Shown here piece by piece: positions 54,002 through 54,261 of a stretch of 64,000 nt of DNA. Each line of letters begins with the position of its first letter. Position 1 is the first letter of the stretch. The DNA is from a virus (Duplodnaviria > Caudoviricetes). The translations under genes and the position numbers were made by a program. The stretch is taken from IMG/VR virus record IMGVR_UViG_3300028283_000231; one strand, written 5' to 3'. The notes under the pieces are model-generated. The model saw only the letters and a program-made list of their open reading frames with translations. It had not been told where the DNA came from and ran no database searches.

Positions 54002-54148
54002 ATGACAGAGCACGACGTAGTAAGATATAAGGATAGGACAGGGACAGTCGTTCATGTTTATAATGAGAATGTTTTCGTAGTTGAATTTACAAATTACGAC
54101 GGACATGAATCTTTACTATTAACATTAAATAAAGAGGAGGATAAATGA
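54002..54148 (+). CDS. Small hypothetical protein (DUF4926-like)
   Basis: Manual translation [29 protein letters not shown]. Confidence 0.5.
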
Positions 54149-54261
54149 AAGTAAGAGCATCAATTAAGAAAAGAAGTGAAGATTGTAAGATCGTGAAACG
54201 TCACGGTGTTATGTATGTAATTTGTAAAAAGAACCCTAAGTTTAAACAGAGACAGGGGTAA
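54145..54261 (+). CDS. rpmJ: 50S ribosomal protein bL36
   Basis: Manual translation [38 protein letters not shown]; GAGGAGG SD upstream; absent from the ORF track. Confidence 0.93.

Follow-up and report, generated by a model that had tools for sequence, protein, structure and literature searches.

A giant freshwater phage of Bacteroidota encodes an intact and strongly conserved bL36, the smallest protein of the large ribosomal subunit, which is an addition to the known class of virus-encoded ribosomal proteins. The gene was located in a 64,000-nt stretch of viral DNA (IMG/VR record IMGVR_UViG_3300028283_000231), referred to below as the window, where it stands between a small acidic ORF resembling DUF4926 proteins and a gene for an RtcB-family RNA ligase (Table 1). 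The preliminary description of this DNA had called the product an unambiguous 38-residue bL36, and the profile searches agree with that over the full length of the protein. The Pfam family PF00444 (Ribosomal_L36) covers residues 1-38 of 38 with an E-value of 1.2e-21 and 77 bits against a cut-off of 26.1, and the NCBIfam model TIGR01022 (rpmJ_bact) gives 63 bits, its cut-off being 22.7. The NCBIfam model of type B L36, NF002021, scores 69 bits at a curated cut-off of 70, and 71 bits for a second viral bL36 described below. A degenerate bL36 pattern matches the window once and none of 100 shuffles. The protein also aligns from residue 1 to 38 without gaps with the bL36 chains of solved ribosome structures, and 17 columns are invariant in the alignment of phage and cellular sequences. 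It has the basic motifs that are conserved at the N and C termini of ribosome-bound bL36.

Table 1. Features of the window discussed in the text, with positions counted from its first nucleotide.
Feature	Position	Strand	Remarks
ORF with T9SS C-terminal sorting domain (Por_Secre_tail) and Fib_succ_major	10210-11505		Bacteroidota-specific marker
S24-peptidase-like ORF	52737-53027	+	96 aa; Peptidase_S24 E 1.3e-5 (Pfam); SD -9.1 kcal/mol; left anchor of the island
GIY-YIG homing-endonuclease-like ORF	53036-53941	+	weak Pfam GIY-YIG and SegE_GIY-YIG matches; between the S24-like and DUF4926-like ORFs
DUF4926-like acidic ORF	54002-54148	+	48 aa; DUF4926 E 2.7e-8, 33.5 bits (cut-off 29.1); stop overlaps the bL36 start (ATGA)
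bL36 SD, GAGGAGGA	54134-54141	+	-12.0 kcal/mol against the anti-SD; within the Lys-Glu-Glu codons ending the DUF4926-like ORF
bL36 (rpmJ-like) gene	54145-54261	+	38 codons; ATG start, TAA stop; pI 10.6; 4.5 kDa
rtcB SD, AAGGAGG	54260-54266	+	-12.6 kcal/mol, strongest in the window; overlaps the bL36 stop
rtcB, short RtcB-family RNA ligase	54272-55312	+	346 aa; PF01139 E 1.7e-25; phrog_1075 E 9e-38; start 10 nt past the bL36 stop
Basic ORF	55314-55496	+	60 aa; between rtcB and the Ro60-like gene; same ORF called in contig L132
Ro60-like (TROVE and vWA) gene	55529-57846	+	pieces 55529-55999 and 56812-57846 flanking a LAGLIDADG ORF (55983-56843); DUF2828 and DUF7788 matches; right anchor of the island

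The gene lies on a viral replicon

The window has a G+C content of 31% and carries 15 tRNA genes, several homing-endonuclease ORFs and DNA methylases. Over approximately 43 kb it is colinear, at 88-91% identity, with record positions ~339-382 kb of LR756501.1, a 735,411-bp sequence of an uncultured phage that presumably corresponds to the 735-kb phage described by Al-Shayeb et al. 2020. LR756501 is a curated circular genome with terminase matches; it encodes bS21 and bL12, bL33 was not found in it, and its single bL36 gene specifies a protein 100% identical to that of the window. The identical protein is also present on contigs of five metagenome samples (three from JGI and two from ENA), always in the arrangement DUF4926-bL36-RtcB. 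A non-viral contig had been named at the outset as a possible refutation, and the colinearity with LR756501 together with the terminase in that genome identify the contig as viral. That bL36 instead sits on a bacterial contig or a chimeric assembly of host and phage had to be considered, as most other database matches of bL36 labelled as phage are host or chimeric sequences: UNVERIFIED INPHARED records carry infA-rpmJ-rpsM, and prophage ends in IMG/VR carry host rpmJ or ykgO-type genes. For the present gene such an origin is already disfavoured and extremely improbable, given the same phage-type flanks in five or more independent assemblies, the presence of the gene in a curated circular phage genome and the long colinear stretch; moreover, neither infA, rpsM nor other genes of the host ribosomal operons adjoin bL36 in the window.

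Three lines of evidence agree on Bacteroidota as the host phylum. First, the window encodes a protein with a T9SS C-terminal sorting domain, which, being specific to Bacteroidota, supports the assignment. Next, the cellular relatives of the window RtcB are almost all from Bacteroidota. Finally, Bacteroidetes hosts have been predicted for all phages larger than 634 kb (Al-Shayeb et al. 2020, PMC7162821). The small share of window genes with a strong SD, 5 of 74, is in line with this assignment.

Occurrence of bL36 among viruses

Ribosomal proteins were for a long time believed to be missing from viruses, and the known viral set consists mostly of surface-exposed, loosely bound ones such as bS21 and bL12. 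The statement in the preliminary description that bL36 is absent from the commonly reported phage ribosomal proteins is in accord with both surveys consulted. The 14 viral ribosomal proteins of Mizuno et al. 2019 (PMC6375957) do not include bL36, even though their searches used PF00444; Al-Shayeb et al. 2020 list S4, S1, S21 and L7/L12 and no bL36 (PMC7162821), and the portions of their supplements that were available do not mention L36. No PHROGs v4 family matches the phage protein, and literature searches retrieved no report of a phage-encoded bL36.

The search of viral databases for bL36 that had been proposed was run on INPHARED and IMG/VR, and each yielded credible cases. A tblastn search of INPHARED gave a credible bL36 only in two copies of the 735-kb genome (LR756501 and LR756503); the other matches are whole-genome-shotgun or otherwise doubtful records, and the four that were opened carry infA-rpmJ-rpsM. 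Scans of IMG/VR with three degenerate patterns, which cover the 38-residue type of bL36 without the 37-residue type and are not exhaustive, gave one further credible case, denoted L003, the rest being host flanks with Firmicutes-type infA-rpmJ or with ykgO-type paralogues near prophage ends. Records labelled as viral in which the bL36 is that of a host include L002, L004 and L005-L008 from IMG/VR and the UNVERIFIED entries MT835508, MT836419, OR844994 and OR846589 from INPHARED. A census of viral ribosomal proteins must thus screen for contamination by host flanks of the ykgO-type, infA-rpmJ and infA-rpmJ-rpsM kinds.

The L003 gene (IMGVR_UViG_3300020235_000344, 3964-4568, minus strand) is unrelated to that of the window; its product is 63% identical to the window protein, has Asn27 and matches the Pfam family with an E-value of 9e-20. 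Encoded on the 5.4-kb contig, whose G+C content is 50%, are a ribonucleotide reductase of the phage type and RuvC. The bL36 gene lies 5 nt upstream of a gene for a P-loop kinase with matches to phrog_505 (polynucleotide kinase) and AAA_33, and a search of IMG/VR for relatives of this kinase found only itself. Viruses have therefore captured bL36 at least twice, both times beside an enzyme that heals or seals RNA ends, although two cases do not make a rule.

Bacteroidota origin and the zinc-binding site

The cysteines of the phage bL36 are at positions 14 and 27 only, and the zinc-ligand positions 11, 14, 27 and 33, which are Cys11-Cys14-Cys27-His33 in the zinc-binding forms, are occupied by Ser11, Cys14, Cys27 and Phe33, as the preliminary description had it: two cysteines and no histidine ligand. 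The zinc site of the C+ form is thus absent, but that site defines the C+ subtype only and not the bL36 family. With two of the four ligands missing, the protein is probably zinc-free, and to this extent the earlier suggestion of zinc independence stands; what does not hold is that the trait is particular to the phage. Of 401 sampled Bacteroidota genomes, 386 yield a single bL36 match, up to 87% identical to the phage protein. The ligand residues and the operon context were read in the 32 best of these genomes: the ligand positions follow the pattern S/T-C-N-F/Y, and bL36 is found behind infA in 31 of the 32. The best-matching chains in solved structures are likewise of the Bacteroidota type, and both 7jil_f (Flavobacterium johnsoniae) and 9i5t_8 show the same single-cysteine pattern, so that the chromosomal bL36 of Bacteroidota, including that of the F. 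johnsoniae ribosome, has still fewer zinc ligands than the phage form. Cys27 itself occurs in a metagenomic bL36 which is 89% identical to the phage protein and is encoded in a normal L30-L15-SecY-Map-IF1-L36 operon. Since a bL36 poor in zinc ligands is normal and the only form in Bacteroidota, the trait is inherited and is not a phage adaptation. Zinc sparing as the purpose of the gene was rejected as unlikely, since the only bL36 of the host phylum is already poor in zinc ligands.

On these sequence comparisons, the origin of the phage bL36 is placed in Bacteroidota. It shares with the chromosomal proteins (7JIL chain f and 9i5t chain 8) the length of 38 residues, the conserved backbone and the loss of Cys11 and His33, and is approximately 74% identical to these solved chains and up to 87-89% identical to genomic and metagenomic ones. 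It differs in having Cys27 where the sampled genomes have Asn, in having His20, which is present in all eight phage variants, and in the setting of the gene, which is outside the infA-rpmJ-rpsM operon and has a very strong Shine-Dalgarno (SD) sequence. A second comparison is offered by E. coli YkgO (bL36B, type B), a longer second copy of bL36 that is induced by zinc starvation. Both lack the full C-C-C-H zinc site, but the phage protein comes from a lineage whose sole copy is the zinc-poor form, as judged by the one match in 386 of 401 genomes.

Two genes elsewhere in the window are connected with metal ions, a cation-diffusion-facilitator transporter with weak similarity to zinc/iron efflux pumps (45811-46728) and a CorA-type Mg2+ channel (34959-35864). 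No link was found between these genes and the zinc-free bL36.

Purifying selection on the phage bL36

The DNA of four lineages was compared by the Nei-Gojobori method: the window, LR756501 (L001), L137/L138 and L139. The dN/dS ratios are 0.027-0.080 at dS values of up to 1.8, with mostly synonymous differences, and the window and LR756501 genes differ by three nucleotides, all of them synonymous. Eight further variants fall into the 90% cluster of the phage protein; the positions at which eight phage variants vary (5, 7, 22, 23, 29 and 33) are also variable in cellular bL36, and the reading frame is intact in every phage copy. Codon comparisons therefore demonstrate strong purifying selection on the phage gene, and the pattern of constraint, in the variable and invariant columns as well as in dN/dS, fits the same rRNA-binding constraints and a protein still in its ribosomal site.

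These data bear on whether the gene might be a neutral passenger, host DNA picked up recently and carried unused in a recombination-prone island. The patchy distribution among close relatives and the homing-endonuclease genes flanking the site would agree with that, but low dN/dS at such high dS and the intact frames would not; nor would the acquisition of a conserved strong SD which host rpmJ lacks, or the fact that the flanking host genes infA and rpsM did not come along. A neutral passenger is already disfavoured and very unlikely.

Neighboring genes in the island

The S24-like ORF at the left anchor is 84-90% identical in L137, L139, L145 and L148. The GIY-YIG ORF that follows it in the window is absent from this position in L137 and L139, in which DUF4926 comes immediately after the S24-like ORF. 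In three of the four lineages the DUF4926-like ORF overlaps bL36 from directly upstream, LR756501 being the one without DUF4926, and its dN/dS is 0.14 against L139. DUF4926 has been described as a conserved downstream partner of the DUF6883/BECR-Tox3 colicin-like RNase toxins and a predicted immunity protein (bioRxiv 10.64898/2026.08.28.747851). No DUF6883 toxin gene is present upstream of DUF4926, the place being taken by the GIY-YIG ORF in the window and by the S24-like ORF in relatives, and the gene would be an orphan immunity-like gene. A complex prediction for the DUF4926-like protein and bL36 scored 0.01, which was counted neither for nor against binding.

The window RtcB is a short and divergent form, below the cut-offs of TIGR03073 (81.5 vs 271.8 bits) and PRK09588, yet the metal- and GMP-histidine positions D34, H36, D63, C66, N107, H108, H125, H210 and H264 do not vary among 19 homologues. 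No close relatives were found in IMG/VR, and a phmmer search of the PDB gave no match for RtcB or for the C-terminal piece of the Ro60-like protein. Assignment to a PrfH-coupled RtcB2 module was rejected because of the TIGR03073 score and of the lack of an adjacent prfH. A release-factor-like gene approximately 17 kb upstream of rtcB is a better match to RF1 than to PrfH, and a Sphingobacteriales homologue of the RtcB also stands without prfH. An open frame at 37101-37628 matches the C-terminal half of RF1 (NF001859, E 1e-39) and contains the GGQ motif; its first codon follows immediately on a stop codon, a short way past tRNA-Thr(cgt), and the 735-kb phage has an orthologue.

The basic ORF downstream of rtcB has no Pfam or NCBIfam match. 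The Ro60-like gene at the right anchor, interrupted in the window, is uninterrupted in L139 and L145. An AlphaFold model of the L145 orthologue (pLDDT 90.2) matches 2i91_A (E 5e-8, TM 0.59), 9l5y_A and 2nvo with E-values of 5e-8 to 4e-7, and these structures include a phage Ro60 (9l5y_A, from a Thermus phage) and complexes with misfolded pre-5S rRNA; the predicted structure thus confirms a Ro60 fold for the DUF2828/DUF7788 neighbor. Apart from tRNAs, Rfam searches at the gathering threshold gave no matches, and thus no group I intron around the LAGLIDADG insertion, and the location of the two pieces and the LAGLIDADG ORF in three different frames argues against an intein. Another broken gene in the window is that of a ClpB-like chaperone, with Clp_N and the ClpB start at 41583-42284 and AAA modules at 43501-45525; the 389-aa ORF between the pieces (42342-43511) has no family match and is possibly another inserted element.

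Collectively, the island concerns RNA damage and RNA quality control, and the place of bL36 in it is suggestive, by position only. Bacterial rsr (Ro60)-Y RNA-rtcB operons and the PrfH-RtcB2 pair (PMC9304027, PMC9223846) are similar in combining an RtcB whose active site is intact with a Ro60-fold neighbor; bL36, however, is not a described part of either, and the window RtcB differs from that of the PrfH-RtcB2 pair in its subthreshold TIGR03073 score and the missing prfH. A further RNA-repair component lies approximately 31 kb upstream of rtcB, an ORF (22614-23207) with the HAD_SAK_2 domain, the 'Swiss Army Knife' RNA repair HAD domain (E 1e-21).

bL36 is not tied to RtcB

The earlier reading of bL36 and RtcB as partners does not survive comparison with related phages, in which each occurs without the other. 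In phages with RtcB proteins 88%, 75% and 71% identical to that of the window, rtcB is preceded by different small ORFs, and bL36 is absent there. Conversely, L137/L138 and L139 carry the S24-like ORF, DUF4926, bL36, small ORFs and the Ro60-like gene but no RtcB. The S24-like ORF is followed directly by the Ro60-like gene in L149 and by RtcB in L147, and in L145 and L148 by a short stretch that matches none of the island's genes before Ro60. Among five close relatives anchored by the S24-like ORF, a bL36 is present at the locus only in L146, which is the same contig as L139. Such varied layouts indicate that the interval between the S24-like and Ro60-like genes is a variable island in which the presence of a DUF4926-bL36 cassette, of rtcB and of homing-endonuclease genes changes from phage to phage. 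From these gene orders, bL36 is a movable accessory gene whose link to RtcB is positional and incidental, and its steadier partner is the DUF4926-like ORF. The proposal that bL36 repairs ribosomes together with RtcB was drawn from the gene neighborhood only.

Two further sets of contigs are of interest for the arrangement of the locus. In ENA sample ERZ1426829, a 3.5-kb contig of the same phage clade has two bL36 genes (564-680 and 1172-1288) approximately 600 nt apart with 53-aa ORFs between them. The P0153 contigs, whose RtcB is 81% identical, have an uncalled gap of approximately 129 nt before rtcB that could hold a bL36.

Strong Shine-Dalgarno sequences of bL36 and rtcB

The strong SD reported for bL36 at the outset is borne out by its calculated energy, and as for the translational coupling to rtcB, the two genes are close, 10 nt apart with the rtcB SD overlapping the bL36 stop, but do not overlap. 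The bL36 SD is encoded by the end of the preceding gene wherever DUF4926 precedes bL36, and the residues concerned (K44, E45 and E46) are invariant in the alignment of DUF4926-like proteins (alignment A3). It is of similar strength in the other lineages, with -13.3 kcal/mol in LR756501, -13.5 in L137 and -12.2 in L139, and in LR756501 it is present despite unrelated upstream DNA. With a simple 9-nt duplex model and crudely called gene starts, an SD of -7 kcal/mol or stronger is found for five of the 74 window genes, as compared to 2.2% of random positions, and the SDs of bL36 (-12.0) and rtcB (-12.6) are among the four strongest in the window. The other called genes with strong SDs are at 23523-24170 (-11.6 kcal/mol), 60611-61465 on the minus strand (-12.1), 52737-53027 (-9.1) and 4937-5215 on the minus strand (-7.4), and these, bL36 and rtcB possibly make up a translational class of their own, in a genome whose SDs do not otherwise rise above background. 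None of the 32 Bacteroidota rpmJ genes reaches -7 kcal/mol, in agreement with the 0% of strong SDs on rpmJ reported for five Bacteroidota classes (Jha et al., PMC7797042). The acquisition and retention of a strong SD by the phage bL36 is the most unexpected feature of the gene.

Ribosomes of F. johnsoniae ignore SDs unless they are without bS21, and those without bS21 prefer to initiate on mRNAs with strong SDs (PMC9976891). A tentative refinement, which is itself rather unlikely, is that the SD acts as a switch gated by ribosome status: the anti-SD of Bacteroidia is hidden by bS21, and the strong-SD mRNAs of bL36 and rtcB would be translated mainly on ribosomes lacking bS21, be they immature, damaged or stripped of the host bS21 by the phage. 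Production of the cassette would thus be confined to times at which ribosomes are incomplete, which would refine and not exclude a role of bL36 in the 50S subunit. Besides the preference of bS21-less ribosomes, the consistent range of -12.0 to -13.5 kcal/mol in all four bL36 lineages against none in host rpmJ, the prominence of bL36 and rtcB among the few strong SDs of the window and the bS21 encoded by the related phage LR756501 would all fit such a switch. On the other hand, anti-SD sequestration in the actual host is an assumption, the genes at 23523-24170 and 60611-61465 have strong SDs without an evident tie to ribosomes, the energies come from the crude model described above, and the bL36 of L003 has no SD.

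A still more tentative extension, to which we give a low probability, is that the SD serves as a translational sensor of ribosome integrity that switches on a kit for ribosome completion (bL36), RNA religation (RtcB) and neutralization of RNase toxins (DUF4926); the kit would be on exactly when the translation apparatus is attacked or rebuilt by the phage. The closest parallel is the autoregulation of rpsU (bS21) in Flavobacteriia (PMC9976891), where likewise a ribosomal-protein gene has an exceptional SD in a lineage normally ignoring SDs; here, in contrast, the gene is that of a phage and of a 50S protein, and the connection between its SD and ribosomes lacking bS21 is hypothetical. The conserved strong SD provides a directly testable link to the specialized bS21-less ribosomes of Flavobacteria.

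Possible roles of the phage bL36

In cellular ribosomes, bL36 binds late and helps to organize rRNA helices near the GTPase-associated and peptidyl-transferase regions. The best reading of the data, which we regard as probable though far from certain, is that a host-derived bL36 enters the 50S subunits of the host during infection. We infer that the gene is expressed, that the protein is incorporated into ribosomes and that the phage benefits. The gene would be a working one that was taken from a Bacteroidota host in the ancestry of a small group of giant freshwater phages, and the protein would be made from a phage transcript during infection. It would most likely take the normal place of bL36 in the host 50S subunit, either completing subunits during assembly as a late-binding protein or exchanging into finished ones, and would there add to the phage bS21 and bL12, so that ribosomes keep their full set of proteins once host gene expression breaks down or translation comes under attack. 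The viral ribosomal proteins tend to be exchangeable, bS21 and bL12 have been found to enter ribosomes (PMC6375957), and new bL36 enters assembled E. coli ribosomes (PMC9959377), which upholds for that species the exchangeability asserted in the preliminary description. The phage bL36 resembles the other virus-encoded ribosomal proteins (bS21, bL12, bS1, bL9, bL31, bL33 and others; PMC6375957, PMC7162821) in being host-derived, small and ribosome-exchangeable, in its location in a true phage genome and under purifying selection, and in belonging to an aquatic Bacteroidota phage which also has bS21 and bL12; it differs in appearing in neither survey list nor PHROGs v4, and its incorporation into ribosomes is predicted.

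Three considerations count against this reading. The presence of bL36 in only one of the five S24-anchored close relatives means that it is dispensable for the clade. In addition, Bacteroidota make their own bL36, and we know of no shortage of it during infection. Finally, the neighbors of the gene, namely the DUF4926 immunity-like ORF, RtcB and the Ro60-like protein, suggest a conflict over RNA damage more than a plain supply of ribosomal protein. The main alternative is accordingly an off-ribosome role in such a conflict, with the basic bL36 made together with the acidic DUF4926-like protein, as an RNA-binding cofactor of the RtcB/Ro60-like module or as a decoy or inhibitor of a host ribonuclease toxin or a ribosome-assembly sensor. 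We consider this unlikely. The overlap with the DUF4926-like ORF in most lineages, the predicted partnership of DUF4926 with RNase toxins, the island shared with RtcB and the Ro60-like protein and the polynucleotide-kinase-like gene next to the L003 bL36 all speak for it, whereas the phage proteins are 84-89% identical to cellular bL36 and vary only where the cellular ones vary, and under a new function these constraints should have loosened or moved; furthermore, LR756501 keeps bL36 without DUF4926, and the association with repair genes amounts to two cases. The SD-gated switch is the most interesting refinement of the ribosomal reading.

With bL36, the viral ribosomal set would come to include the smallest large-subunit protein. 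As bL36 shows, genes of 38 codons are easily missed in viral surveys. The presence of bL36 would point to giant phages furnishing both ribosomal subunits with proteins that bind late or can be exchanged, with bS21 for the 30S subunit, bL36 for the 50S subunit and bL12 for the stalk.
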